DNA of 34,686 nucleotides from Verrucomicrobium spinosum (GCA_020718645.1 DYRQ01000012.1:1-34686), one strand, 5' to 3'. Positions 6,710-32,264 are shown, counted from the first letter of the stretch. Notes: generated by a model from the letters alone, not told the origin. A program made the numbers and translations.

Positions 6710-8020
6710 TCACGCTTTCATTCCGAACTGAGCCAGCATTTTCTTCATTTTGCCAGCGTTTTTCATCATTTTTTTCATCTGCTGAAACTGCAGCAACAGT
6801 TCGTTCACAGCCGTGACTGTCGTGCCGCTTCCCCGAGCGATTCTTTGTCTTCGCTTAGCATTAATCATATCGGGCTTCCTCCGCTCTTGCGGGGTCATAC
6901 TCAAAATGATCGCCTCGGTGCGTCGCAGTTGTTTTTCCGCACCTTGGGAATCTTTTACCTTAGGGGCTCCGGGTATCATGCCAAGCAAATTCTCTAGCGG
7001 ACCCAATTTTTTAATTTGTTGGAGCTGGACGAGGAAATCGCCGAGGTCAAACTGTTGCTTGCGCAGTTTCTCCTCCATGTGCTGCATGTTCTCAAGATCA
7101 AAAGCTTCCTGCGCCTTCTCCACCAGACCAACGACATCGCCCATGCCGAGCACACGCGAGGCGAGGCGCTGAGGGTCGAGCAACTCGATGTTGGCGAGCT
7201 TCTCTCCTGTGCCGATAAATTTGATCGGAACACCGGTGACTTGCCGCATGGAGAGCGCGGCACCACCTCTGGCATCGCCGTCCAACCGCGTAAGCACCAG
7301 TCCGGTCAAGGGTGTAGCCTGTTTGAAACGCGTGACGATATCCACGGATTTCTGGCCCAGTGCGGCGTCTGCGACAAAGAGGGTTTCCTGAGGGGATACT
7401 GCCTCGCGCACGGCGGTTAATTGGGCGAGCAAAGCTTCGTCAAGATCGAGGCGGCCTGCCGTGTCAAAGATGATGGTGTTGCACCCTAGCTCCTTGGCGA
7501 GGTCGAGCGCCTCGCGGCAGACGAGCACGGGGTCTTGCGTATCTCTGCGGACATGGATGGGCACGCCGACTTGTGCGGCCAAACTTTCGAGCTGGGTGAT
7601 GGCGGCAGGGCGCTGGAGATCGGCGGCGACTAGCATCGGCTTTTTGCCTTTGGCTTTGAGCCAGCCAGCGAGCTTGCCCGCCGTGGTGGTTTTACCGCTA
7701 CCCTGGAGACCGCAGAGGAGTATTTTTAGGGGGTCGCCCTGTGCCAAGGGGCTAGGTTCTCCGAAGAAAGATGCTAGCTCATCTTGGAATATTTTTACGA
7801 ACTGCTGCCCGGGTGTGATGCTCTGCAACACCTCTTCGCCCAAGGCGCGCACCCGCACTTTTTCCACGAACTCGCGGGCCACGGTAAAGTGGACATCTGC
7901 CTCGAGCAGCGCGAGCCGTATCTGCTTGCACGCGTCAGCCACATTGGCCTCGCTGAGCTTGCCGTATCCGCGCAGGTTTTTAAAAACTTCCTGCAATTTA
8001 TTTGCCAGTTGATCAAGCAT
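6710..8020 (-). CDS. ffh: signal recognition particle protein Ffh
   Basis: N-terminus MLDQLANKLQEVFKNLRGYGKLSEANV aligns with E. coli Ffh MFDNLTDRLSRTLRNISGRGRLTEDNV; GTPase P-loop GLQGSGKTTTAGKLA; M-domain Met-rich C-terminus; the 540-aa track ORF carries a spurious 104-codon N-terminal extension. Confidence 0.95.
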   Translation of the reverse strand: MLDQLANKLQEVFKNLRGYGKLSEANVADACKQIRLALLEADVHFTVAREFVEKVRVRALGEEVLQSITPGQQFVKIFQDELASFFGEPSPLAQGDPLKILLCGLQGSGKTTTAGKLAGWLKAKGKKPMLVAADLQRPAAITQLESLAAQVGVPIHVRRDTQDPVLVCREALDLAKELGCNTIIFDTAGRLDLDEALLAQLTAVREAVSPQETLFVADAALGQKSVDIVTRFKQATPLTGLVLTRLDGDARGGAALSMRQVTGVPIKFIGTGEKLANIELLDPQRLASRVLGMGDVVGLVEKAQEAFDLENMQHMEEKLRKQQFDLGDFLVQLQQIKKLGPLENLLGMIPGAPKVKDSQGAEKQLRRTEAIILSMTPQERRKPDMINAKRRQRIARGSGTTVTAVNELLLQFQQMKKMMKNAGKMKKMLAQFGMKA

Positions 8021-8738
8021 GGTAGAAAGAGGCAGTATAAGACATTTGAAAAAAATAACCACAGCTTTCGTCTTGGCGGCAGGACTTGGCACGAGACTCC
8101 GTCCGCTCACCGACCACACCCCCAAACCTTTGCTCTCGGTGAAAGGTAGGCCGCTCATCACCCATGCCTTCGACCATCTGGCCGCGGCGGGGATCGAGCG
8201 GTTTATTGTCAATACACACCATCTGGCTCCGCAATTTGAACAAGCTTTTCCCGATCGGGCTTGGCGTGGACCCCCGATTGTTTTCCGGCACGAACCCGTG
8301 CTGCTGGAGACGGGCGGAGGTATCAAGAACATCGAAGATTTGGCAGAGGGCGAGCCGCTGTTGGTTTATAACAGTGATGTGCTCACGGATCTGCCACTGG
8401 GGCAACTTCTCACGGCACGGGAACAACTTGGTGCCGAGGTGACTCTCGGGCTGAGAACTTTCGGTGGTCCTGCCCATATCGGGTTTGACCCAGGCTCTCA
8501 GCGGGTGCTCGACATTCGCGGAGAGTTGGGGGTTCCGGGGCTGCTCCCCTGCCTGTTTACGGGGATTTACACGATAGAACCGAGTTTTTTTTCGAGGCTT
8601 GAGCGCGGTAAAAAAGAGTCAGTTGTCCCTGTTTTCGTCCGCATGATACGAGAGGGGCTGCCACCGGCTGCCACCGTGATTGACTCGGGGAATTGGGACG
8701 ATCTCGGCACCGTCGAGGCTTATGAGAAGCATCGTTGA
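8019..8738 (+). CDS. murU: MurNAc-alpha-1-phosphate uridylyltransferase (MurU-like nucleotidyltransferase); likely true start TTG 8046 (MKKITTAFVLAAG...)
   Basis: NTP-transferase motif LAAGLGTRLRPLTDHTPKPL and TGGGI, closely resembling Pseudomonas MurU; followed by HAD and AmgK-like genes. Confidence 0.7.
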   Translation: MVERGSIRHLKKITTAFVLAAGLGTRLRPLTDHTPKPLLSVKGRPLITHAFDHLAAAGIERFIVNTHHLAPQFEQAFPDRAWRGPPIVFRHEPVLLETGGGIKNIEDLAEGEPLLVYNSDVLTDLPLGQLLTAREQLGAEVTLGLRTFGGPAHIGFDPGSQRVLDIRGELGVPGLLPCLFTGIYTIEPSFFSRLERGKKESVVPVFVRMIREGLPPAATVIDSGNWDDLGTVEAYEKHR

Positions 8739-8756
8739 CCTACTGGAGAGCTGCTG

Positions 8757-9449
8757 ATGAAATCGCCATTACCCACTTTGCACCACAAACCTGAAGTCAT
8801 CTTTCTCGATGCTGCTGGCACCCTCATCCAGCTCGCGCAACCGCTTGGTAAAACCTATGCCGCCTTTGCGGCCAGACTGGGTTTCCATGCGGAGCCCACA
8901 CAGTTTGAGGATGCTTTTCTGGGCGCGTGGCGGCGCATGCCGGAGAGAGAGCCCGAGGCGAATGGGCGTCCAGACGATGATAAAGCCTGGTGGTTCACCA
9001 TCGTCTCAGCCACCTTGCGCGAGGTCTGTTCTGGGAGCGATGAGGATGATGCCTCGTTTTTTTTCCAAGACCTCTACTCGCACTATGCCAAACCTGAAGC
9101 CTGGAGATTGTTTCCCGAGGTAGTGGAAGTGTTGTCCGCCCTGCAATCGCGCGGCTATCGCCTAGCGGTGCTTTCTAATTTCGATACCCGGTTGTTCAGT
9201 GTCCTCGATGGGCTCGACATTTCGCATCGGATGGAGCGCATTATTGTATCGAGTCGGGTGGGTGCCGAGAAGCCGCACCCGGCGATTTTCCAATCGGCTT
9301 TGCGCCACATGTCGGTTTCCCCAGAGCGGGCGTTGCATGTAGGGGACGATCTCAGAGCTGATGGCGAAGGCGCTGCCCGCTCCGGGATTCCCTCTTTCTT
9401 GGTGGACAGACCCTCGAGAGATCTCAAAGATTTGCTGGTATTGCTATGA
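8757..9449 (+). CDS. HAD-family hydrolase (possible MurNAc-6-P phosphatase MupP analogue)
   Basis: HAD motif I region FLDAAGTL (nucleophile Asp present, second Asp replaced by Ala); motif IV VGDDLRADGEGA; 4-nt overlap with the amgK start. Confidence 0.6.
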   Translation: MKSPLPTLHHKPEVIFLDAAGTLIQLAQPLGKTYAAFAARLGFHAEPTQFEDAFLGAWRRMPEREPEANGRPDDDKAWWFTIVSATLREVCSGSDEDDASFFFQDLYSHYAKPEAWRLFPEVVEVLSALQSRGYRLAVLSNFDTRLFSVLDGLDISHRMERIIVSSRVGAEKPHPAIFQSALRHMSVSPERALHVGDDLRADGEGAARSGIPSFLVDRPSRDLKDLLVLL

Positions 9450-10456
9450 CACTCGACGAACTCAAGACACTGACTCTTTCCCGTTTTTCACTTCCTCCTG
9501 AGACGATATTGGAACTTCGCCCCATCCTCAAAGGAGGTTCGGATCGTTCTTTCTGGCGCGGTGTCATCCCTGTCCTTGGCCCCAGTATTGTGATGCACTA
9601 CTCCGCCGAGCGCCAAGAGAATGCTGGGTATGCCGCGATCGCCTCGTTGCTGAAACGGGGTGGTGTAGCGGTGCCCGCCATACACGGACACGACACCGAC
9701 AACAGAGTGGTCTGGGCCGAGGACTTGGGAGAAAACGACCTGCACGCCCTGAATGCGCGCCCGTGGGAAGAACGCCGCCCGTGGTATCAGCAGGCTTTGG
9801 TGCAAACTTGCACTCTCCATTCGTGCAACGCCACGACACACACCCAGCAGGGCGTGCATCTGATGCCAGGATTCGATGCGGTGCTCTACGCGTGGGAGCG
9901 CAATTATTTTTTTGAAAGATTCGTGCATGGCGCCTGCAAGATCGAGTTGAGTGCCGAGTTAAAAACCAAGCTCGACTTCGAGTTAGAGGCTCTGGCCAAC
10001 CACTTGTGCAACCTCCAAAAAGTCTATGTTCATCGCGATCTCCAGTCGCAGAATATCATGCTCAAGGAGGGGGGAGCTTGGTTCATAGATTTCCAAGGCA
10101 TGCGCGAGGGCACACGGTTCTACGACCTCGGCTCTCTGCTCTACGACCCCTATGTTCCGTTCACCCCCGAACAGCGATTGGAGTGTGCCCGTTATTACTA
10201 CGATCTGGGTGCAACAGAGGGCATGGAGTGGGCTGTATTCGCAGAGAACTTCCATGCAGCCGCGGCTCAACGACTCATGCAGGCCTTGGGCGCCTATGGA
10301 TTCTTGGGGATAGTCAAAGGCAAATCAGAATTCTTGCATCACATCCCAGCAGGGCTTCGCAATTTGCAAGAGGCGGCTCATGCGAGTGGTATCCTACCAC
10401 ATCTAGTGGAGCTGACCGAGCGTCTGAGCTTGATCTCCCTGCCGAATCAGGGGTAG
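9446..10456 (+). CDS. amgK: APH-fold sugar kinase (N-acetylmuramate/N-acetylglucosamine kinase AmgK-like)
   Basis: Brenner motif HRDLQSQNIM and DFQG in an aminoglycoside-phosphotransferase fold; sits between murU and nagB. Confidence 0.65.
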   Translation: MTLDELKTLTLSRFSLPPETILELRPILKGGSDRSFWRGVIPVLGPSIVMHYSAERQENAGYAAIASLLKRGGVAVPAIHGHDTDNRVVWAEDLGENDLHALNARPWEERRPWYQQALVQTCTLHSCNATTHTQQGVHLMPGFDAVLYAWERNYFFERFVHGACKIELSAELKTKLDFELEALANHLCNLQKVYVHRDLQSQNIMLKEGGAWFIDFQGMREGTRFYDLGSLLYDPYVPFTPEQRLECARYYYDLGATEGMEWAVFAENFHAAAAQRLMQALGAYGFLGIVKGKSEFLHHIPAGLRNLQEAAHASGILPHLVELTERLSLISLPNQG

Positions 10457-10464
10457 TCTGAATT

Positions 10465-11256
10465 ATGGAAGTCATTATACTGCCAGATTCCAAAGCAGCC
10501 TCGCGACTCGCAGCGGGCATGATCGCAGATCTCATTCGAAAAAAAAGTAACTGCGTGCTCGGCCTTGCCACAGGAAGCACCCCGCTGGGTATTTATCGCG
10601 AGCTTGTTTCCATGCATAACATGGAGGGGCTGGATTTTTCTGAAGTTACCTCGTTTAACCTCGATGAGTATGTCGGTCTCTCGCCCGAACATCATGCCTC
10701 GTATCATCGGTTCATGCAGGAAAATTTGTTCAATCACATCAACATGCCCAAGGATCATGTCCACATTCCCGATGGTCTGGCCACCGATATTCCCTCTTAC
10801 TGTCAAAGTTATGAGGAGGCCATCTATCAGGCCGGCGGTATTGATCTCCAACTCTTAGGTATAGGGACAGATGGCCATCTTGGTTTCAACGAACCCACCT
10901 CTTCTCTCACCTCCCGCACCCGTATCAAGACGCTCGATCGGCAGACGATCCTCGATAATCAGCGTTTTTTCCAACCCGGCGAATCGGTGCCTAGCCATGT
11001 CATCACCATGGGGATTGGGACCATCCTCGATGCCAAGACTTGTCTGCTCATCGCTTTTGGGGAAAGCAAAGCGGAAGCCGTAGCTGGCATGGTAGAAGGC
11101 CCTGTTGCCGCCATCCTCCCAGCCTCCGCATTACAACTCCACCAGAAAGCCATCATCATCCTCGACGAGGCTGCCGCCTCCAAACTCGCCAAACGCGAAT
11201 ATTACCAATGGGTTTATGATCATAAACCCGACTGGCAGAAAGTTGGACAATCATGA
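10465..11256 (+). CDS. nagB: glucosamine-6-phosphate deaminase
   Basis: LGLATGSTPLGIYRELV and LLGIGTDGHLGFNEP NagB signatures; 263 aa. Confidence 0.9.
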   Translation: MEVIILPDSKAASRLAAGMIADLIRKKSNCVLGLATGSTPLGIYRELVSMHNMEGLDFSEVTSFNLDEYVGLSPEHHASYHRFMQENLFNHINMPKDHVHIPDGLATDIPSYCQSYEEAIYQAGGIDLQLLGIGTDGHLGFNEPTSSLTSRTRIKTLDRQTILDNQRFFQPGESVPSHVITMGIGTILDAKTCLLIAFGESKAEAVAGMVEGPVAAILPASALQLHQKAIIILDEAAASKLAKREYYQWVYDHKPDWQKVGQS

Positions 11257-12101
11257 AGTTCGCGCATCCCCACGCCGATTTATTTATCCCCGAGGGTTCC
11301 TTGTGGGAAGCCGCAGCCAGACGGACCACCCACCTCTGTATCGCCGCGCACCAAGACGATATCGAAATTCTCGCCTACCACGGCATTGCGGAATGTTTCA
11401 ACACAGCCAATCAAGGTTTTGGTGGAGTCGTCGTCACCAACGGCTCGGGCAGTTCACGGCGCGGCTCCTATGCGAACTTCACCGATGAACAGATGGTGCA
11501 GGTGCGGAGGGAGGAGCAGCGGACAGCCGCTATCATTGGACACTACACCTTCCAAGCCCAGCTAGCCCATCCCAGTGAGACTGTGAAAAACCCGTCCGCC
11601 AAAGAAGTTATCGCCGATCTTAGTGTGATCTTATCCGCTGTGCGTCCTCAAGTGCTCTACACGCACAACCCTGCTGACAAACATGACTCCCACATTGCCG
11701 TGCTCTTGCGCACCCTGGAGGCTGTCCGTTCTCTGCCAGTCATAGATCGTCCTCGGAAAATCTACGGGGTCGAGGTATGGCGCAACCTCGACTGGCTCTT
11801 GGATGAAGACAAAGTGGCTCTTGCTGTGGATCGTTATCCTAACTTGAGCGCAGCTCTCCTCGGTGTCTTCGACTCACAAATCAGTGGCGGCAAACGCTAC
11901 GACCTCGCCTCTCGAGGCAGGCAGTTAGCCAATGCCACTTTTTACAACCCGCGCGAAGGCGACCAAGCTGACGCTCTCAACTGGGCCATGGACTTAACCC
12001 CCTTAGTGTTGGATGACACCCTCGATCTAGCGGATTACACCTTGGCCTATCTCGACCGACTTCGCCAAGATGTTGCCGAGCGTATTCAGAAATATCGCTG
12101 A
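11253..12101 (+). CDS. PIG-L/LmbE-family N-acetylglucosaminyl deacetylase
   Basis: AAHQDDIEILAYHG (HxDD zinc-binding motif of the PIG-L family); ATGA overlap with the nagB stop. Confidence 0.75.
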   Translation: MKFAHPHADLFIPEGSLWEAAARRTTHLCIAAHQDDIEILAYHGIAECFNTANQGFGGVVVTNGSGSSRRGSYANFTDEQMVQVRREEQRTAAIIGHYTFQAQLAHPSETVKNPSAKEVIADLSVILSAVRPQVLYTHNPADKHDSHIAVLLRTLEAVRSLPVIDRPRKIYGVEVWRNLDWLLDEDKVALAVDRYPNLSAALLGVFDSQISGGKRYDLASRGRQLANATFYNPREGDQADALNWAMDLTPLVLDDTLDLADYTLAYLDRLRQDVAERIQKYR

Positions 12102-12138
12102 CACCGCCAAAAATAGGTCGTCCTTCATCTATTTTTCA

Positions 12139-12168
12139 AGCACCACTCTCTGCTGGTGTTTTTTTTGA
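12139..12168 (+). terminator. rho-independent terminator after the PIG-L gene
   Basis: GCACCAC-tctctg-CTGGTG hairpin followed by T8. Confidence 0.6.
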
Positions 12169-12255
12169 TCCATCAGAGGACGGGTTTGCCCTGCGGCGAG
12201 CCACGGAACGCGCGGAGAACAGGGATGAGTTTTGATATCCTCCGAGGGAAGAGGG

Positions 12256-12898: not shown

Positions 12899-13693
12899 TC
12901 AGGCGGGCGGTTGCTGTTGCGCAGAGCGAGCAAAGTAAGCTTTCACTGCCGGATCGCCGTAGAAGACCATGGCGAGGATGCCGACGATCAGGGAAAAAAC
13001 ATTACCGGTGATGATAGAGACAATTTCCATGATGGCGACATGCGTGGCGGGCTTGGTGGCGCGAATCGGGTCGGACAAAATTTTCGAGGCGTAGATGATT
13101 TCAAACACCGCCAGCGTGGCCAGATAGGCAGCCGGGATGATGGTGAACACGATGCCGACGAGGAAAATCGAAAGACCAGCGAAAATCCAACCCACAGCAC
13201 CGAGGGCATTCAAAATACCACTGATCAAGGTCAACACCGCGATCGTAGTCAGCTTGCCCGGCTTAACTCCGGTGGAGGTAGGGGTGGCTGGGGAGGGCGC
13301 GGGGTAAGGCGCGGGTGCAGGGGAGGCGTAGGGCGGCTGTTGGGGCTGGGGTGCCTGCGGCTGGGGCATGGTCATGGCAGGCAGCGCGTATTCGAGGCGA
13401 ACGCCCGGGCCGTCTTTGCCTAGGTAGAGAACCGAGCCCGGAGGTAAGGGCGAGCGGGTCACTTTTTGTGAGTTCAAAAAAGTGCCCTCGCGGCTGCCGC
13501 TATCTTCCACCCACCATTGTCCGGCGTTGTGGAAAACCGCACAGTGGCGAGGGGACACCGTTTTGTCCCAAGTGGGATCGAAGCGGATATCGCAACCGGG
13601 GTCGGCACCGATGGTGACAGGGAGAGAGGTGTGGACAGTTTTTTTGCCGCGCTCGAAGCCTCCGAGCCGTGTAACAGTAAGTTCTGGGTTCAT
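12899..13693 (-). CDS. FHA-domain (non-canonical) - Pro-rich linker - 4-TM membrane protein
   Basis: FHA-like TIGADPGCDIRFDPTWDKTVSPRHCAVF...SREGTFLN with SxxH present but the conserved Gly-Arg replaced by Gly-Ala; PQPQAPQPQQPPYASPAPAP linker; four hydrophobic helices including EIIYASKIL; ATGA overlap with the upstream paralogue. Confidence 0.7.
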   Translation of the reverse strand: MNPELTVTRLGGFERGKKTVHTSLPVTIGADPGCDIRFDPTWDKTVSPRHCAVFHNAGQWWVEDSGSREGTFLNSQKVTRSPLPPGSVLYLGKDGPGVRLEYALPAMTMPQPQAPQPQQPPYASPAPAPYPAPSPATPTSTGVKPGKLTTIAVLTLISGILNALGAVGWIFAGLSIFLVGIVFTIIPAAYLATLAVFEIIYASKILSDPIRATKPATHVAIMEIVSIITGNVFSLIVGILAMVFYGDPAVKAYFARSAQQQPPA

Positions 13694-15996
13694 ATTTTTC
13701 CTCGTGATGTGCCGGTGAATCCTATCGGGTCAATACCGTGCTGGCGCACGGCGTCGAGATCCATGATGAGAAATCTGGAGCCTGGTTTGTTGAATTCCGC
13801 CGCATTTTTCCTCGTGCGGTTGGTGGCCTCGGAGATGGCGCGGACAAAACTTTCCCCCGAAGGACCGGCGGCGCGGATCTGGTCCACCACACCTTGGAGC
13901 GCACCGTCGTCGCCAGCAGCAGCCAGCGGAGCCGCCCCGCGTGCATCCACACTGCCGAGCATAGTGGTCTCCAGATAGACCATGGTTTTCCCATCACGAT
14001 CGAGGGCAAAACCCATATACATGTGGCCGGGCACAGTGACGAGGAAGCTGGAGACACCAATCTTGCGGAGCACGCTGGCCATCAGCACGCTGCCATCTAC
14101 GCAGTTGGCTTGGGCGTGTCCCAGAGATTCCTCCAAGAAGCGGACATGCTGGCTGTAGATATATTCGGACTCCGCGGAGGGGGTGGTGATGTTACTGTAT
14201 TTCACCCCCCGTTTTTGCAGGGCGCTCCAGATGGCAAACGCCTCCTTCAACACGCCTTCCGGCGGTTTTTGATAACCCGCAAATTCGTTGACCACGCGTG
14301 TGTCCAGAGCCTCGCGCAGGAGAGTGTCCACGGCCGGGTGATGCTCGTTCACAAATGCCGCGAACATCCACATCATCGGGGTAACTCCAGCCTCTTGCGC
14401 CGTTTTGGCAGCGGGGTTTTGCACGACGATAAAGGGGCAGTCGTTGACCGAACGCACACGCACAGTGAGCGTTTTTTGTCCCAGGTCGCTATTGCCGAGC
14501 ATCACGCGAAAAGTGAGATTAGCCGGAGTGATCTGGCGGTTGTTTTTGAGTGTTTCGTAGCGGTAGTTGATTTTTGGGAAAACGAAATGTTCGATATTAC
14601 CCTGTTCGAGCGTGCCTTCGAACACGCTGGGCTCGATCAATTCGGAGCCAGTAACCTCCACACGCAGCGCGGTTCGGAATGCCGGGCTCTTGATACGGAT
14701 ACCGACGAGGCCGTTGGGATCACCGAGGCGGGGCTGCATCGCGGCAGAGGGAACAGCAGGCGGCACCACGGCGGCGGTGGCGAGGAGGTAGGAGGGAAAA
14801 ATTTGGTTGTCGGCGAAGACGACGGGTTCCCATTCGCCTGGGGTCTGGAGCAGGGATTTCCCGAGAGCCGCGGCCTGCTGTCCGCGCTCAGGTGAGCCGG
14901 GTGTCATGGAGGCGCCGGGCTTGGCTGCGAGTTGACCCTGCCACCACGCCTGCGCACCAGCGGAGGCCGCTGAGGTGGAAGCAGCGGCGGGCGCATTGAC
15001 CACTTCGTTGAGCGAAGGGAGTGTCGTGGTCGCGGCAGTGCGCGCACGATCCTCGGCATCGGCCAAGGCAAAAGCCCCCGAGATGAAATGGCAGAGCAGC
15101 ACGAGGAAAAATGCCCCTGCCACGATGCCGCCCACCAGTCCCGCTCCAAAACCGTGTCCCTGTGCAGGTGCCGGAGGCATGCCAGGTCCGATAGGCTGCA
15201 TGGCAGGACCTGCCAGATATTCTTTCACCTTCCTGTCTCCCATGAAAACCAGCGAAAGGATGCCGGTGATCAAGGAGAAAATATTCCAGAACAAGATAGC
15301 CACGATCTGCATCACTGCGACAAACAGTGCCGGTTTCCGGATGCGCGCAGGGTCAGGCAAAAGGCGTGTGGCGTAGAGGATTTCCAAAATGCCAAGCGAC
15401 AAGAGATAGACGGGCGGGAGTATCTGGAGCAGTGGGGCAGACTTGAAAATTGTCAATCCGGGGACACCCAGAAAGCCGAGCAGATTCAACACGATCGCGT
15501 AGAGGATGGCGGCGCCAAAAATCAGATCTATCGCAGCCAAGATATTGAGCACACCACTGATCATGGTCAGCACCGCCACCACTTGCACCGTGCCCGGACG
15601 GGCGGCCGTGGCTCCCATCCAAGGCTGGGCTGCATTGGGTGCAGTGTAAGAGGGTTGCTGCATCGCAGGTGAGGGAGCCTGAATTAAAACAGGCTCGCAG
15701 CGCACACGGGGTCCGCCGACACCCAACTCGATCTCAGTGCCCGAGGAGAACGCGGTCGGAGCCTCGATACGACGCCCGGCGATACGGGTGCCTTGCGAGG
15801 AACCATCGTCGAGCACGAACCATTGTTTTCCATCGTATTCCAGATGGCAGTGGCGCGGGGAGACAGTCTTGTCCCATGTGGGGTCAAAGCGGACATCGCA
15901 GCCGGGGTCGGTGCCCAGCGTGACGGTGCGGTTCTGGAGTGTCATGGGTTCACGCGAACCGAAGCCGACAAGTTTAGTGATTTTGATGCCGCTCAT
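13690..15996 (-). CDS. FHA-domain (non-canonical) - 4-TM - fifth TM - extracytoplasmic transglutaminase-like (Cys/His papain-fold) domain protein; tandem paralogue of 12899..13693
   Basis: N-terminal LGTDPGCDVRFDPTWDKTVSPRHCHLEY (about 50% identical to the neighbour over FHA plus 4TM); TMs including EILYATRLL; C-terminal ANCVDGSVLMASVLRKIGVSSFLVTVPGHMYMGFALD...YLETT resembling the transglutaminase-core Cys...His...Asp/Glu arrangement. Confidence 0.7.
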   Translation of the reverse strand: MSGIKITKLVGFGSREPMTLQNRTVTLGTDPGCDVRFDPTWDKTVSPRHCHLEYDGKQWFVLDDGSSQGTRIAGRRIEAPTAFSSGTEIELGVGGPRVRCEPVLIQAPSPAMQQPSYTAPNAAQPWMGATAARPGTVQVVAVLTMISGVLNILAAIDLIFGAAILYAIVLNLLGFLGVPGLTIFKSAPLLQILPPVYLLSLGILEILYATRLLPDPARIRKPALFVAVMQIVAILFWNIFSLITGILSLVFMGDRKVKEYLAGPAMQPIGPGMPPAPAQGHGFGAGLVGGIVAGAFFLVLLCHFISGAFALADAEDRARTAATTTLPSLNEVVNAPAAASTSAASAGAQAWWQGQLAAKPGASMTPGSPERGQQAAALGKSLLQTPGEWEPVVFADNQIFPSYLLATAAVVPPAVPSAAMQPRLGDPNGLVGIRIKSPAFRTALRVEVTGSELIEPSVFEGTLEQGNIEHFVFPKINYRYETLKNNRQITPANLTFRVMLGNSDLGQKTLTVRVRSVNDCPFIVVQNPAAKTAQEAGVTPMMWMFAAFVNEHHPAVDTLLREALDTRVVNEFAGYQKPPEGVLKEAFAIWSALQKRGVKYSNITTPSAESEYIYSQHVRFLEESLGHAQANCVDGSVLMASVLRKIGVSSFLVTVPGHMYMGFALDRDGKTMVYLETTMLGSVDARGAAPLAAAGDDGALQGVVDQIRAAGPSGESFVRAISEATNRTRKNAAEFNKPGSRFLIMDLDAVRQHGIDPIGFTGTSRGKI

Positions 15997-16039
15997 AATT
16001 ATTTTTTTGAAGCTCTCCGTTCTTTCTCGCAGTTGGAGG

Positions 16040-17578
16040 TTATCGGTTCTCCGACTGGTATCTGGCCTTGAGCGCCTCAGCGACGGCGGGGGCGATCTCG
16101 GGAGATTTTTCCGCGATCATGGTCAGGGCTTGCTCGGGCGAAAGGCCTTTGCGCATTTCGAGTTCAGCGAGTTTGAGGATGCGATCCGCCTGTTCTCCCG
16201 AGAGGGTGGAGAGGAGGGCTTGGAAATTCGAAGCGCCGCGCAACTTGAGGATATCCGCCTCGCGCTGCAACTCTTGCTCGTCCTCTTTTTTCTTCAGAGA
16301 GAGTTTGGCTTCTTTGACGAGACGCAGTGCCTCGACGCCTTGTTTGGCGAGTTCGACATCGGTCTTGGCTTGCTCCACTTGCTGTTCGCGTCCGAGTTCG
16401 GCGCGGGTGCGTTGTTGGTGGATTTCCTCGTCGAACTTCAGGCGGTTGCCTTCGATCTCGTGGCGTGTCTCGAGGATTTCCGATTGGTGCCGGAGTTTCT
16501 GTTCGTCGAGCCGGTTGGAGATTTCTGATTTGCGTCGCTCGTAATCTTGCTGGAGCCCCTCGAGCTGAGTCTTGTGTTCGGCGGCTTGGAGGAAGCGCTT
16601 GGCCTGAGCCTCGCGGTCGGCGCGATTGAAGCCGAGTTCGTGGGTGACCTGCTCAAATTCGTCCCGCAACATTTCTTCGTCGCGGTAGGCAGAGACTTTT
16701 TCTGCACGCAGCGCGTCGCGCAGACGGCGGTTGATGTCGTATTCGCGGGAGAGGCGGCTGATCTCGCCGAGTTTCTCTTTGAAGGCATCAATCGCTGGAC
16801 CGCCGAAATCCGCCAGTCGCACACCGACGATCGTGAGCCCGAAAGTCGCGAGGAGTGGCTGGAGTTTTTCTTGGAGAGAACCCTCGATCATCTCGCGGAC
16901 ATTCATCTCGATCATGAGGTCATCTACCTTCTTGTCGGCGACCATGGTTTGAACCGCGTTGCGGACATCGGCGTAGAAGCGGTTGGACAAATCTTGTGTC
17001 GAGAAACTGGCCGTGTGAGTGGAGATCAGTTGGGCGACGAAGAGCTTGGCGTCGGAGACTTGAAAGAGCAGGCGCAGACGGGCGTCTATCGGGATTTGTT
17101 GATCGGTGCGCAGTTCCGGCAGGACGAAATCCACTTCGGCAGACTGCATGTCGAGGAGGATAGCGTGGCATTGCCTGCCACCATCAAGACCGAGCAGTCG
17201 CTGGAAAAAGGAGTCGAGCGTGTGGTAGCCAGGCTCGAGTTGCCCGTGGAACTGGCCGTTTTGGAAAACCAGCGCGAGCGTGCCATCGTCCACTTGCAAC
17301 CCGTGGTGCAGAGCCTCTTTGGGGTTCTGGATATCCACGCGGGCGGCGAAGTCCGAGGGAGAACGGTGCCAGCGGTCGCTGTAGAAAGCTTTGCGTTGGT
17401 CGGGCGTCTGAGCCCCGCCGCATTTCCAGCAAAATTTCGAATCCCCACCGACGGAGGCGCTGCATTGAGGGCAACTGCTCCACGAGGTCGCGGAGGGGCA
17501 TCCGCAGGAGTTGCAGTATTGGGCATCCTTCGAGAGAGGATTGCCGCAGTTTGGACAGCGTTCGCTTAAAAATCCCAT
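16040..17578 (-). CDS. double zinc-ribbon - SPFH/band-7 (flotillin-like) - long coiled-coil protein
   Basis: CPNCG...CNSCG and CPQCS...CWKCG ribbons; SPFH-like core (ILLDMQSAEVDFVLPELRTDQQIPIDARLRLLFQVSD...); about 200 aa of E/Q/R/L-rich coiled coil; AAGGA RBS 7 nt before the ATG. Confidence 0.8.
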   Translation of the reverse strand: MGFLSERCPNCGNPLSKDAQYCNSCGCPSATSWSSCPQCSASVGGDSKFCWKCGGAQTPDQRKAFYSDRWHRSPSDFAARVDIQNPKEALHHGLQVDDGTLALVFQNGQFHGQLEPGYHTLDSFFQRLLGLDGGRQCHAILLDMQSAEVDFVLPELRTDQQIPIDARLRLLFQVSDAKLFVAQLISTHTASFSTQDLSNRFYADVRNAVQTMVADKKVDDLMIEMNVREMIEGSLQEKLQPLLATFGLTIVGVRLADFGGPAIDAFKEKLGEISRLSREYDINRRLRDALRAEKVSAYRDEEMLRDEFEQVTHELGFNRADREAQAKRFLQAAEHKTQLEGLQQDYERRKSEISNRLDEQKLRHQSEILETRHEIEGNRLKFDEEIHQQRTRAELGREQQVEQAKTDVELAKQGVEALRLVKEAKLSLKKKEDEQELQREADILKLRGASNFQALLSTLSGEQADRILKLAELEMRKGLSPEQALTMIAEKSPEIAPAVAEALKARYQSENR

Positions 17579-17593
17579 AGTAATTCCTTGGAG

Positions 17594-17608
17594 GCAAGGG
17601 GCGTGCCA
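17594..17608 (-). promoter_or_regulatory. sigma54-type -24/-12 element (TGGCAC-gcccc-TTGC) 15 nt upstream of the SPFH gene ATG
   Basis: reverse complement of 17594-17608 reads TGGCACGCCCCTTGC, a 10/10 match to TGGCAC-N5-TTGC. Confidence 0.4.
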
Positions 17609-17660
17609 AAGACGGTGAGACTCAAATACGATCGAGTCTGCGCGATGGAATGCCCGGGGT

Positions 17661-17945
17661 TCATTTTTCTAAAAATTGGAAATGGAAACGAGCCACGCGC
17701 AGATGATCGCCGTGGCGCAAACGCTGGCGCCGGGCCACGCGGTGCCCGTTGAGGTAAGTGCCGTTGCGGCTGCCGAAGTCTGCCACCCAATAGCGGTGGT
17801 CGGAGTCGGGCATGACCGCGCCATGCGAGCGGGAGACAGCGGGGTGTGGGAGCACGAGATCGTTATCGGGGTTGCGCCCAAAAAAGAGTGTGCCACCCAG
17901 AGGTTCCGAGTCGCCGTTGCCGAGCATGAGGCGGGCGTGGTTCAT
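17661..17945 (-). CDS. small soluble FHA-domain protein (canonical FHA)
   Basis: start at MNHARL (ATG 17945); LFFGRNPDNDLVLPHPAVSRSHGAVM...FGSRNGTYLNGHRV carries the canonical GR, SxxH and NG FHA residues; the upstream part of the track ORF is a probable extension. Confidence 0.75.
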   Translation of the reverse strand: MNHARLMLGNGDSEPLGGTLFFGRNPDNDLVLPHPAVSRSHGAVMPDSDHRYWVADFGSRNGTYLNGHRVARRQRLRHGDHLRVARFHFQFLEK

Positions 17946-20425: not shown

Positions 20426-21172
20426 ATGGACGCCCTCATACTTGCCGCTGGCTATGCCACCAGGCTCTACCCCCTCACAGAAACACAAGCTAAGCCACTT
20501 CTTCCAGTCGCAGGAAGACCCATGATCAATTTCGTGCTCGAGGCGCTCTTGCCCATCGAGGAGATCACCCGTGTGTTCGTCGTAGCTAATGCTAAATTTC
20601 ACAGTCATTTTGAAGAGTGGGCCGCAGCTTACCAATCGCCCACACGCCAGGTTCCCATTCACATTTTGAACGATGGTTCGACTGATCCTAAAAATGCACT
20701 AGGCGCCATTGGCGACATCCATTTCACCGTCAAGCAGGCGGGTCTTACTGATGACCTGATCATCGTGGCTGGCGACAACCTTTTCAGCGAGAAATTGCAG
20801 GACTTCGGCAAACTCGCCGCTGAGAAGAAGCAGGCGTTATTGGGTGTTTATGATGTGAAAGACCTTGAGCAGGTGAAAAAATACAACAGCATCTCGCTGG
20901 ATGCTGGCGGTAAGATCGTGAATTTCGAGGAGAAACCGAAAGACCCTACCAGCACCCTGACAGGTATCGCTCTCTATTACTATCCTGCGCACATTCTGCC
21001 GATGATTGATCAGTATATTGCAGAGGGTAATAACGCTGATCAGCCGGGCCGTTTTGTGCAGTGGCTGCACACGCGTCAGCCTGTTTATACTTGGACCGTG
21101 CCAGGGCTCTGGTATGACATCGGCAGCAAAGAGACCCTCGAAGAGGCTAACACCATCTTTGCTGGGAAATAG
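20426..21172 (+). CDS. sugar-phosphate nucleotidyltransferase (NTP_transferase family; specificity unknown)
   Basis: MDALILAAGYATRLYPLTETQAKPLLPVAGRPMI pyrophosphorylase motif; AAAGGA RBS 8 nt upstream of the ATG. Confidence 0.75.
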   Translation: MDALILAAGYATRLYPLTETQAKPLLPVAGRPMINFVLEALLPIEEITRVFVVANAKFHSHFEEWAAAYQSPTRQVPIHILNDGSTDPKNALGAIGDIHFTVKQAGLTDDLIIVAGDNLFSEKLQDFGKLAAEKKQALLGVYDVKDLEQVKKYNSISLDAGGKIVNFEEKPKDPTSTLTGIALYYYPAHILPMIDQYIAEGNNADQPGRFVQWLHTRQPVYTWTVPGLWYDIGSKETLEEANTIFAGK

Positions 21173-28894: not shown

Positions 28895-30184
28895 TTAGTA
28901 GTCTGGTCTGAACGGTGCGGGAGCAGGGTGTGTTTTATTAGTGTCGGCGGGGCTGGAAATTTTTGCTTCGGCGGGGAGATGGACGGGCGGCAGGAGATCC
29001 ACGCGGCGTTTGAAAATAGGGGGCGTCGTGTCCACTATAGGTTTGGCGATAGCTTCATGGTCGAGAGGGATTACAGGGTTTTCGCTATCCTTGCGTGCGG
29101 CCATGGCAAAGATGGTAGCCGATTCTGGTGCGCCAGAGAGTTGGGCACGGTAGTCGAGCACGCCATCGCGGATGGCCGTGGCCAAGGATTGGCGGAAGGC
29201 GGTGGTAGAGATTTTTTTCGCGTCTTGCGAATTACTCACAAAGCCGCATTCGATCAAGGCAGAGGGTGAACCACTGTCTTTGAGCACCACGAAACGGGCG
29301 CGTTTGACCCCTCTGTTTTCGTTGTCGGCACCGCGGGCCATAGCCATGCGTCTTTGCAGTGAGCTAGCCAGCAAAATATTATTGCTGTCGGTGGCATGTC
29401 CCGGGAGTTGCTCGTAGTCGGTGTAGGACAGTCGGCGGGAAGAAGAGGAGGGGGTGCCTCTCGGGGAGAGCGCGTAGGATTCTACCCCCAAGGCAGAGCG
29501 GTCGCCTGAATTGAAATGGATGCTGACCATGACGCTGTTGGGGATCAGCGTGGCGATGCGGGCACGCTCTTCCAGCGGGACGAAAACGTCGCGGTTTCGT
29601 GTCATCACTACTTTGAACCCAGCAGCTTCGAGCAGGGGTTTGGATCGCTGAGCCACATCGAGCGATAGAGTTTTTTCATCAGGCGTCCAGCGGCTTTGGG
29701 CTCCGTTATCCATGCCACCGTGACCTGGGTCGAGCACGACGGTATCAAAAGTTTTGCAGCTTTTAATGGAGGACGGGCGGAGCAGGGGTTCGATCGTCCG
29801 GGAGAGATCCACCCGCGAAACCATGGCCAAGCCATCGTGTTCGAGCACGGGGAAACTGAGCCAATGTTTGACGCCGTTGATGGCGATGGTCTGGTGATCT
29901 GCCGTGATCTGGATTTCTCGTTTGCCATCGGTGAGCAAGCGAGTCGGGCCAATGCTGGTTTTTTGTCCGAGCTGATAGAACTCGGCAACCTGTTCGGCAG
30001 AGAGATACTCGCGCTCGTGAATGGTGACTAGCTTCCACTCGAATGCTTCTGCCAACTGATGCGCGAGAGCCAGTGCAGTGCAGAGGAAAATGGGGTATAG
30101 CTTTTTGGCTCGGATGTTCAAACCGGCGCAAACTGGGGCGCTGGCTACAACCGGAGTCGAGGTGGTGTGTGTAGTCTCGAACAC
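28895..30184 (-). CDS. amiC: N-acetylmuramoyl-L-alanine amidase (Amidase_3, AmiC-like) with N-terminal AMIN-like domain and Pro-rich C-terminal tail; exact start uncertain
   Basis: [15 protein letters not shown]...SIHFNSG amidase_3 zinc-ligand motifs; hydrophobic signal-like [19 protein letters not shown]. Confidence 0.85.
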
Positions 30185-30292
30185 GCCGTGATGCTACAGG
30201 AAATGGCACCGAGGTCAAATGGTGAATGCGACCCTACCCATATTCGAGATACGCACTCGACATCACCTCCAAATTGCGGCTATAAACTGGGG

Positions 30293-31303
30293 ATGAAACG
30301 AGCATTGATCACCGGCATTACTGGCCAAGACGGTTCTTATTTGGCCGAGTTGCTGCTGGAAAAAGGTTACGAAGTCCATGGCACCATCAGGAGAGCAAGT
30401 AGTTTCAACACCTCGCGCCTCGACCACATCTACACTGACCCCCATTTCCAAGATGCCCGTCTCCGCTTGCACTACGCTGATTTGGCTGACGCGAGCAGCC
30501 TGGTGACTCTGCTCCATGAGGTGCGTCCCGACGAAATCTACAACTTGGCCGCCCAGAGCCATGTGCGTGTCAGCTACGACATTCCTGAATACACCTGCGA
30601 TGTGACAGCCATCGGCGCTATTCGTCTGCTCGAAGCCATCCGCAAATCCAAACTCGACTGCCGCTACTACCAGGCATCCAGCAGCGAGATGTTTGGTAAA
30701 GTGGTAGAGACGCCCCAGAAAGAAACCACCCCTTTCTATCCCCGCAGCCCCTACGCTTGCGCCAAGGTCTTTGCGCACTGGGCTACGGTGAACTATCGCG
30801 AGAGCTACGGCCTCTATGCTTGTAGCGGTATCCTTTTTAACCACGAATCCCCGCGCCGTGGTGAAACATTTGTCACCCGCAAAATTACCCGTGCTGTGGC
30901 CCGGATCAAAGCGGGTGTGCAGTCGGATCTTTACCTCGGCAACCTCGATGCCCGCCGCGACTGGGGCTATGCCAAAGAGTATGTCGAAGCCATGTGGCGG
31001 ATGCTCCAGCAAGATCAGGCCGATGATTATGTGATCGCCACGGGCGAGACTTATTCCGTGCGTGAATTCTTGCTCGAAGCGTTCTCCTATGTGGGGCTCG
31101 ATTGGGAAAAATATGTGAAAGTGGATCCGCGCTACTATCGCCCAGCCGAAGTGGATCTGCTGCTCGGAGACCTTTCCAAGGCCATTTCTAAACTTGGGTG
31201 GAAACCGCAGACCTCCTTCAAAAAACTCGTCCAGATCATGGTCGAGGCGGATCAAGAACTTCTCGACATCGAGTTGCACGGTTCGGCCAGAAACGGGGGT
31301 TGA
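30293..31303 (+). CDS. gmd: GDP-mannose 4,6-dehydratase
   Basis: [30 protein letters not shown] and strong overall Gmd similarity; the track ORF start at 30167 is an extension. Confidence 0.95.
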
Positions 31304-31310
31304 TTTTTTT

Positions 31311-32264
31311 ATGGGCTTCTGGAGTCAGCAAAAAATTCTGGTGACAGGTTCTGGCGGGTTCCTCGGTTCGCACATGCTCGAAGCTCTCGCCCATCGCGGC
31401 TGCGCTGAGATCATCACTCCCCGCAAAAAAGAGTGCGACCTCACCGATCCCGCCAGCGTTTATCAGCTCGTCGAGAGCCATGAGCCCACGCTGATCCTGC
31501 ACCTGGCCGCTATCTGCGGAGGTATCGGGGCCAACCAGAAAGAGCCCGGGCGCTATTTTTTTGAAAATGCGGTCATGGGTCTCCACCTGCTCGAAGCTGC
31601 CCGCCGATCAGGTGTGGCCAAAGTGGTGACAATCGGCACGATTTGCGCCTACCCGAAGTTTACCCCAGTTCCGTTTCACGAGGATGATTTGTGGGCGGGT
31701 TATCCCGAAGAGACCAATGCGCCTTACGGGCTGGCCAAGAAAATGCTCCTCGTCCAGTCGCAGGCTTACCGCCAGCAATACGGTTCCAACTTCGTTTATC
31801 TCCTCCCCGTCAATCTCTATGGACCGAGGGACAATTTTGATCTCGAATCCTCGCATGTCATCCCGGCGCTGATCCGCAAGATGGAAACAGCCCGCCTCAC
31901 GCACGCCCCCGAAGTGGTGCTCTGGGGCACGGGCACGGCTTCTCGGGAATTTTTCTTCGCGGGCGATTGTGCCGAAGGCATAGCTCTAGCTGCCGAACAC
32001 TACAATTCGCCCGAGCCGGTCAACTTGGGGAGCGGCTACGAAATCACCATTCGCGACTTGGCGGAGAAAATCCAAGCCATGATCGGATACGAGGGTAAAA
32101 TAATCTGGGACAGCACCAAACCCGACGGGCAACAGCGCCGCCAGCTTGATACGAGTCGTGCTGAACAATCGTTCGGTTTCCGTGCCAAGGTCGGTCTGGA
32201 CGCAGGTCTCGAGACCACGATCGCATGGTATCGCAAAAACTATCCGCAGAACTCGGGGCAATAA
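31311..32264 (+). CDS. fcl: GDP-L-fucose synthase (GDP-4-keto-6-deoxymannose 3,5-epimerase/4-reductase)
   Basis: start at [20 protein letters not shown]; [25 protein letters not shown] and SHVIPAL match Fcl. Confidence 0.88.

Follow-up and report, generated by a model that had tools for sequence, protein, structure and literature searches.

What does a deacetylase of the LmbE/PIG-L family do directly behind nagB, in the place of nagA? The question is raised by a compact operon of five genes in a stretch of 34,686 nucleotides (nt) from Verrucomicrobium spinosum (GCA_020718645.1 DYRQ01000012.1:1-34686; the whole stretch is called the window here), in which two amino-sugar modules are joined, one with a MurU-like transferase and an AmgK-like kinase, the other with NagB and the PIG-L protein. 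Tentatively, and with slightly less than an even chance of being right, we read the PIG-L protein as most likely converting N-acetylglucosamine-6-phosphate (GlcNAc-6-P) to glucosamine-6-phosphate (GlcN-6-P), which would feed NagB and make the enzyme a non-orthologous stand-in for NagA. The source organism is a lake Verrucomicrobium; what a preliminary description of this DNA had observed is confirmed and what it had made of it is partly supported. The main object of interest is a widespread deacetylase of the LmbE type, encoded with NagB and a ROK-fold kinase in NagA's place, and the five-gene operon is a local fusion. The features of the operon are as follows.

8019–8738, plus strand: gene 1, MurU-like sugar-1-phosphate nucleotidyltransferase, 239 amino acids (aa) from ATG 8019, with Pfam, NCBIfam and structure matches
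8757–9449, plus strand: gene 2, HAD-IA hydrolase, HDHD3/REG-2-like (TIGR02252), with motif I DAAGT
9446–10456, plus strand: gene 3, AmgK-like anomeric sugar kinase of the APH fold (Pfam APH; best NCBIfam model AmgK)
10465–11256, plus strand: gene 4, glucosamine-6-phosphate deaminase NagB, NagB-I type (NF001684, TIGR00502)
11253–12101, plus strand: gene 5, LmbE/PIG-L-family zinc-dependent deacetylase (PF02585), ATGA-coupled to nagB
12138–12169, plus strand: weak terminator-like hairpin and T-run, directly past the last stop codon

On re-reading, the five open reading frames (ORFs) stand as the preliminary description had them, that is, as a compact operon with gaps of at most 18 nt (18 nt between genes 1 and 2, 8 nt between genes 3 and 4) and two ATGA overlaps, CTATGACA at 9446–9449 and TCATGAAG at 11253–11256. 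The second overlap couples nagB translationally to a gene for an LmbE/PIG-L enzyme with the motif AAHQDDIE and not to one for an amidohydrolase of the NagA type, which had likewise been claimed. Public gene calls, in the metagenome-assembled genome (MAG) GCA_974337675.1 (contig CDCNCU010000112.1) and in the Joint Genome Institute (JGI) metagenome 3300000230, give the same ORFs except for the start of gene 1. The closest homologues, at 55–65% identity, come from Verrucomicrobiota.

The PIG-L protein scores 54.4 bits against PF02585 (cut-off 28.2), and no amidohydrolase family matched it in the Pfam and NCBIfam searches. Its subfamily of proteins of about 280 aa comprises 331 clusters at 50% identity with E < 1e-30, more than 8000 sequences overall, and spans at least five phyla. 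LmbE enzymes universally possess a metal/general-base motif, HxD1D2 plus H, with 97–148 residues between ligands 2 and 3, and contact the substrate through a conserved Arg and His, which are Arg68 and His144 in MshB and Arg53 and His110 in BshB (PMC4101496). In the PIG-L protein of the window the motif is H33-Q-D35-D36 together with H147, the ligand spacer of 111 residues lies inside that range, R85 aligns with BshB Arg53 and MshB Arg68 (the Arg of LRKEE in BshB1 and BC1534), and H144 is the equivalent of MshB His144. Among 36 diverse members of the subfamily H33, D35, D36 and H147 are invariant and H144 nearly invariant; of the other charged positions E38, E88, E174 and R223 are invariant, K214 is nearly so and R215 is invariant in closer members.

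The AlphaFold2 (AF2) model of the protein is of high predicted quality, with a predicted local distance difference test score (pLDDT) of 92.5 and a predicted template modelling score (pTM) of 0.92, and a Foldseek search with it retrieved BC1534, BshB, the diacetylchitobiose deacetylase Dac, TT1542 and MshB, all at a probability of 1.00, a template modelling (TM) score of 0.5–0.65, for the first four of 0.6–0.65, and 15–18% identity. Profile comparison with Dac gave an E value of about 4e-8, no closer than with BshB. By motif and model the protein appears to be an active, zinc-dependent enzyme that deacetylates a 2-acetamido sugar, and it is about equally distant from every characterised LmbE member.

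The partner in the second module is, judged by its family matches, a genuine NagB, with 379 bits against NF001684 (cut-off 326) and 304.7 bits against TIGR00502 (cut-off 236.9). It is 41% identical to NagB of E. coli and keeps the catalytic DEY and DGHxxFNEP as well as the stretch SSLxSRTRIKTL, which in the E. coli enzyme includes residues of the allosteric site for GlcNAc-6-P.

Whether the five genes belong together was read from two sets of loci: 80 loci of the PIG-L family from a genome scan, which covers Verrucomicrobiota, Acidobacteriota, Planctomycetota, Lentisphaerae/Victivallales, Aminicenantes and others, and 83 loci of the kinase family, 80 from a metagenome scan and 3 from direct look-ups. 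Genes in the fetched loci were called by a simple rule based on GC content at the third codon position (GC3), and the tblastn counts of neighbours are independent of that rule. Neither nagB nor a PIG-L gene lies near the relatives of the kinase (0/83 loci), and the window-type transferase, HAD or kinase are likewise absent near the relatives of the PIG-L protein (0/80). The closest PIG-L relative on a long contig has only a ROK-like gene upstream, and the closest kinase relative is also without the arrangement. A conserved five-gene operon is rejected on these counts; as neither module's relatives carry the other module, the operon joins a nagB–PIG-L pair to a housekeeping salvage module in this lineage specifically.

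What accompanies the PIG-L gene elsewhere is, in 44 of the 80 loci, a highly conserved ROK-like protein of 465–485 aa encoded directly upstream (for example L017 6485–7909, L087 8587–9978, L172 10001–11431 and L176 6554–8011). Searches of Pfam and NCBIfam gave no match for this protein, which source records name a predicted NBD/HSP70-family sugar kinase or a ROK family protein; its AF2 model (pLDDT 76) resembles ROK glucokinases, NagK and other GlcNAc kinases, N-acetylmannosamine (ManNAc) kinases and ROK repressors (TMt 0.70–0.76) and carries about 150 aa more at the N-terminus, a domain predicted to be alpha/beta. The repressors among the fold matches speak for a regulator of the NagC/Mlc type, but the alpha/beta nature of the N-terminal domain, without an obvious winged helix, and the invariant ND-G-E and glycine-rich kinase motifs make this unlikely.

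Counted by Pfam family, the immediate neighbours of the PIG-L gene are most often NagB. NagB lies within 8 kb in 20 of the 80 loci, 13 times as a NagB–PIG-L fusion of the PRK02122 type and 6 times as a short NagB directly downstream, where the order ROK-like, PIG-L, NagB differs from the NagB, PIG-L order of the window. In an Acidobacteriota MAG (L045 5371–6504, minus strand) a SIS-type NagB-II-like gene, with 240 bits against the NagB_SO3506 model (cut-off 430, not reached), is oriented divergently to the ROK-like/PIG-L pair and takes the usual place of NagB-I. The variable gene order together with this one substitution by the non-homologous NagB-II argues for functional coupling between PIG-L and NagB. 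With E. coli NagA as query, tblastn matched neither the window nor any of the fetched loci, of which those around PIG-L genes amount to 1.06 Mb, whereas E. coli NagB matched in 28 loci; amidohydrolases are not among the recurrent neighbour families of the PIG-L gene. The proposal that the PIG-L protein fills the deacetylase step beside NagB, made in the preliminary description from one locus, gains from this recurrence with NagB and a ROK-fold kinase across phyla and in varied orders. In the literature, no paper was found that describes an association of LmbE/PIG-L proteins with NagB.

The fusions (NCBIfam NF002557/PRK02122) contain the same two domains which in the window are encoded by separate, coupled genes, and they share operons with PIG-L orthologues (L003 5958–7883, L087 6657–8558, L026 4515–6425 and L172 7778–9757). 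Opitutaceae such as TAV5 possess compact, AraC-controlled operons of the fusion, the ROK-like gene and PIG-L, and in Opitutus sp. ER46 fusion and PIG-L are present and the ROK-like gene is missing. Unlike the window pair, with its short form of NagB, the fusions carry a PIG-L domain of a different subfamily, in which most Opitutaceae copies have PEPSDE in place of AHPDDE and have lost the second His motif; the fusion L010 4517–6484, in contrast, keeps HPDD and H..TH. In most Opitutaceae copies the fused domain is thus probably inactive, a pseudo-enzyme or a regulatory domain, and the loss of its zinc motif would explain the accompanying stand-alone, active PIG-L. Two active PIG-L enzymes within one Opitutaceae module are for the same reason mostly rejected. 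The NagB domain of the fusion proteins (compared in L003 6021–6749) has SARDSRTRLVTL where the window NagB (10465–11256) keeps SSLxSRTRIKTL, and the fusions may be regulated differently.

How would the second module work? The best-supported part of the proposal is the parallel that gene neighbourhoods and folds suggest between the set of ROK-like kinase, PIG-L and NagB and the set of NagK, NagA and NagB known from E. coli and Caulobacter, with the same logic of kinase, deacetylase and deaminase; the window NagB is a true orthologue and the ROK-fold kinase is found in other genomes. The two sets differ in that the deacetylase of the window has the Rossmann-like zinc fold of LmbE/PIG-L proteins in contrast to the amidohydrolase TIM barrel of NagA, and in that the ROK-like kinase has diverged too far to be recognised by the ROK model of Pfam and has its additional domain. 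The PIG-L protein would carry out zinc-dependent deacetylation of a 2-acetamido sugar, most likely of GlcNAc-6-P to GlcN-6-P and acetate, and NagB would interconvert GlcN-6-P and fructose-6-phosphate plus ammonia, which would make the module a catabolic or redistributing branch; alternatively, NagB might run in reverse and supply GlcN-6-P. A single transcript would then serve an anabolic shortcut, from sugar to sugar-1-phosphate to a uridine diphosphate (UDP)-sugar, as well as a route to fructose-6-phosphate. For Caulobacter it has been proposed that losing NagA is toxic because GlcNAc-6-P builds up, which would make a tight coupling of deacetylase and NagB sensible. Substrates, direction of flux and the genome-wide absence of nagA are what we infer here.

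Several observations weigh against this proposal. The PIG-L subfamily is without a characterised member and stands at the said 15–18% identity to known LmbE enzymes, and the suggested non-orthologous replacement of NagA is drawn from gene neighbourhoods only. The ROK-like kinase is not encoded in the window, where the sole kinase of the operon would make 1-phosphates and not 6-phosphates, and the MurU and AmgK scores of the first module are both under the curated NCBIfam cut-offs. The five-gene arrangement was seen only in contigs with the identical protein. Flavobacterium johnsoniae has a predicted NagA (Fjoh_3974) alongside the NagB of its chitin locus, which we take to be of the long PIG-L-fused form. 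Finally, many PIG-L loci have no amino-sugar neighbours and have, for example, YmdB and OsmC. In two such loci (L085 9222–10849 and L086) the end of a gene for a YmdB-like metallophosphoesterase overlaps with the PIG-L orthologue, after which the OsmC gene is next, with no amino-sugar genes nearby.

The trio of kinase, deacetylase and deaminase suits a different order of reactions equally well, in which the PIG-L protein, like archaeal Dac, deacetylates free GlcNAc or the non-reducing end of chitobiose, the ROK-like protein is a glucosamine kinase and NagB deaminates the resulting GlcN-6-P, as a counterpart in bacteria of the chitin pathway of Thermococcus. This is unlikely in our view, yet it deserves to be kept in sight: diacetylchitobiose deacetylases and BC1534 are among the nearest solved structures and profile matches, BC1534 reportedly also acts on GlcNAc in vitro, the window operon is without a 6-kinase, and the Dac/glucosamine (GlcN) kinase/GlmD pathway of Thermococcus and Pyrococcus likewise places an LmbE-family deacetylase upstream of a GlcN-6-P deaminase. 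On the other hand, Dac is no nearer in sequence than BshB or TT1542, the archaeal pathway uses GlmD where the window has NagB-I, the window enzyme may act on a 6-phosphate, and neither the exo-beta-glucosaminidase that partners Dac nor a chitinase recurs as a family in the PIG-L neighbour lists. The NagB–PIG-L fusions and the allosteric-site motif of NagB, moreover, point to GlcNAc-6-P as a metabolite of the pathway, as the reading as a NagA stand-in has it. That the juxtaposition with nagB is accidental is very unlikely; the PIG-L protein would then serve thiol synthesis in the manner of BshB and MshB, or deacetylate a natural product or glycoconjugate, and NagB would be anabolic or act alone. 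The restriction of the five-gene arrangement to this lineage, the occurrence of some PIG-L orthologues among unrelated genes and the inclusion of non-deacetylases such as GalB in the LmbE fold are in line with an accident. Against it, NagB lies near PIG-L in the 20 loci mentioned, where by our own estimate, which is not a computed one, chance would give well under one locus for a gene of one or two copies in a genome of several megabases, and gene order varies with NagB-II substituting once. Thiol synthesis in particular, BshB having been the example of an unrelated function in the preliminary description, is rejected: superfamily, metal motif and the Arg/His substrate contacts are shared with BshB and MshB, but the BshB models TIGR04000 and TIGR04001 give 23.4 and 22.4 bits against cut-offs of 195 and 182, no BshA/BshC or MshA/MshC genes are among the neighbours, and no glycosyltransferase or BshC-like partner recurs near PIG-L genes.

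The first module suggests yet another substrate. Several characterised LmbE enzymes deacetylate alpha-GlcNAc glycosides, namely GlcNAc-inositol, GlcNAc-malate and GlcNAc-phosphatidylinositol (GlcNAc-PI) (PMC4101496), and in the window an anomeric kinase and a nucleotidyltransferase are encoded in the same operon as the PIG-L protein. The PIG-L family might accordingly stand for an undescribed bacterial route of N-acetylhexosamine (HexNAc) use, in which an anomeric kinase, an AmgK-like one here and NahK elsewhere, makes a product that is deacetylated directly as GlcNAc-alpha-1-phosphate, or as UDP-GlcNAc after nucleotidyl transfer and epimerisation; GlcN-1-P would then pass through GlmM to GlcN-6-P and NagB, a Leloir-like catabolism which needs neither a 6-kinase nor NagA. 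We consider this improbable. In its favour, PIG-L genes elsewhere adjoin an orthologue of NahK (10/80 loci; PDB 4wh1, E 7e-79), a 312-aa nucleotidyltransferase (19/80) and a GalE-like epimerase (8/80). One such cluster (L026 1378–8846) consists of a regulator, the 312-aa nucleotidyltransferase, the NahK orthologue, the GalE-like epimerase, the NagB–PIG-L fusion, the ROK-like gene and PIG-L, and similar ones occur in Opitutaceae, in Victivallales and at other loci (L035, L057, L063, L007, L048, L049, L050 and L084). They recall the NahK-based pathway for lacto-N-biose and galacto-N-biose (LNB/GNB) in Bifidobacterium and mirror the kinase–transferase pairing of the window, which itself is without NahK and has its kinase and transferase from other families: the window kinase shares only the catalytic loop with NahK (BLASTP E 0.001), and the window transferase only a short N-terminal stretch with the 312-aa transferase (BLASTP E 0.016). 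As the families are unrelated beyond the superfamily level, PIG-L appears to have been paired more than once, seemingly twice, with a sugar-1-phosphate nucleotidyltransferase and an anomeric kinase for HexNAc, which would also speak for a substrate substituted at C1. Against such a substrate, the commonest partner of the PIG-L gene is the ROK-fold kinase (44/80), GlmM was not found beside any PIG-L gene, and neither nagB nor PIG-L is near the relatives of the window kinase. ROK kinases typically make 6-phosphates.

With respect to the first module, the family assignments of the preliminary description hold in part. MurU and AmgK are the best family matches of genes 1 and 3, but membership by the NCBIfam cut-offs is not reached by either. 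The transferase scores 73 bits against Pfam NTP_transferase and 126.3 bits against its top model, MurU NF045761 (cut-off 250), with a mannose-1-phosphate guanylyltransferase model a close second at 113.9 bits; its top two solved structures are MurU of P. putida (4y7t, E 4e-23) and a MurNAc-1-P uridylyltransferase (8hhd, E 8e-20). The kinase scores 74 bits against Pfam APH and 82.6 bits against its top model, AmgK NF045759 (cut-off 550), and 53.5 bits against NF045698 (cut-off 500). It possesses the catalytic loop HxDxxxxN and the metal Asp of DFx that characterise APH-fold kinases, and among 15 homologues HRDxQSQN (HRDLQSQN in the window) and IDFQG...YDLGSLLYDPY are invariant. JGI gives some homologues the name N-acetylmuramate 1-kinase, and in many an NTP_transferase domain is fused to the kinase. 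AmgK and MurU of Caulobacter are backed by genetics and metabolomics although their identity to the enzymes of Pseudomonas is only 30% and 37%, and the weak similarity of the window proteins is therefore not disqualifying.

A MurU-like gene lies directly upstream of the kinase in 71 of the 83 kinase-family loci, the remainder being mostly truncated contigs, and in two loci of Verrucomicrobiota (L089 and L090) the transferase–kinase pair is divergent from ffh-rpsP as in the window, in one of the two with the HAD gene included. The module is a housekeeping unit conserved in Verrucomicrobiota and further phyla, here divergent from ffh-rpsP. By homology, it would phosphorylate N-acetylmuramic acid (MurNAc) and/or GlcNAc at C1 and convert the sugar-1-phosphate to a UDP-sugar for cell-wall synthesis. 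With the AmgK–MurU–MupP systems of Pseudomonas, Caulobacter and Tannerella it shares an APH-fold anomeric kinase beside a small nucleotidyltransferase and a HAD gene in the cluster; it differs in the order of transferase then kinase and in scores far under the NCBIfam cut-offs.

The HAD protein differs further, as MupP is Gph-like and of the DxD type. The motif DAAGT, in the context FLDAAGTL, is present as had been noted, but the protein is not the degenerate MupP that the preliminary description had in mind, a candidate that is rejected: it is a full-scoring member of the REG-2-like/HDHD3 family (TIGR02252, 185.4 bits, cut-off 155.2), with just 26.6 bits against the MupP model NF009696 (cut-off 359), and the solved structure that matches it best is that of human HDHD3 (3k1z, E 2e-30, residues 17–220). 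The gene lies between transferase and kinase in only 2 of the 83 kinase-family loci. Two orthologues were found, in L090 and L146, and both keep DAAGT or DAAST, S140, K172, D197 and D202, with the other HAD motifs intact. Because HDHD3 has DVKDT at this site and the orthologues retain DAAGT/DAAST, the missing Asp at +2 seems to be characteristic of the family and not a sign of decay. A literature search found no substrate for the HDHD3 family; the HAD protein of the window may be a sugar-phosphate hydrolase that is not orthologous to MupP.

GlcNAc from chitin, peptidoglycan and glycans ranks among the main supplies of both carbon and nitrogen in soils and lakes, and pathway reconstructions score its use by the presence of nagA. 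If the PIG-L protein is a stand-in for NagA, genomes of Verrucomicrobiota, Acidobacteriota, Planctomycetota, Lentisphaerota and Aminicenantes, phyla that are abundant but little cultured, would be mis-scored for amino-sugar use and cell-wall recycling. A function would, at the same time, be assigned to a large PIG-L subfamily with its 331 clusters, to a ROK-like kinase not recognised by Pfam and to the fusions annotated as 'glucosamine-6-phosphate deaminase-like'.

The start of gene 1 is uncertain, either ATG 8019 or TTG 8046. ATG 8019 overlaps the start codon of ffh on the minus strand as CATG (window 8018–8075 region), and there is therefore no intergenic promoter region between ffh and this start. 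The publicly called start at TTG 8073, which gives 221 aa, lies in the conserved region of the glycine-rich loop; it cuts off the first beta-strand of the nucleotidyltransferase fold, and the resulting protein is probably too short. Downstream, the terminator-like hairpin at 12138–12169 is only suggestive, because terminator-like sites around the operon are not commoner than in shuffled sequence.

Beyond it, on the minus strand at 12899–17945 of the window, lie genes for three proteins of the FHA/Yop-YscD type (264, 768 and 94 aa), with a Band_7 protein of 512 aa with zinc-ribbon matches between the second and the third. A second, unrelated NTP_transferase gene (20426–21172, plus strand; Pfam 120 bits) is located beside rplS/rnhB and a rhomboid protease gene. 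The window also holds an Amidase_3 gene, for an AmiC-type N-acetylmuramoyl-L-alanine amidase (28895–30184, minus strand), and a gmd plus fcl-like pair for GDP-fucose synthesis (30167–32264, plus strand); with these genes, the organism therefore makes peptidoglycan and has enzymes of cell-wall turnover.

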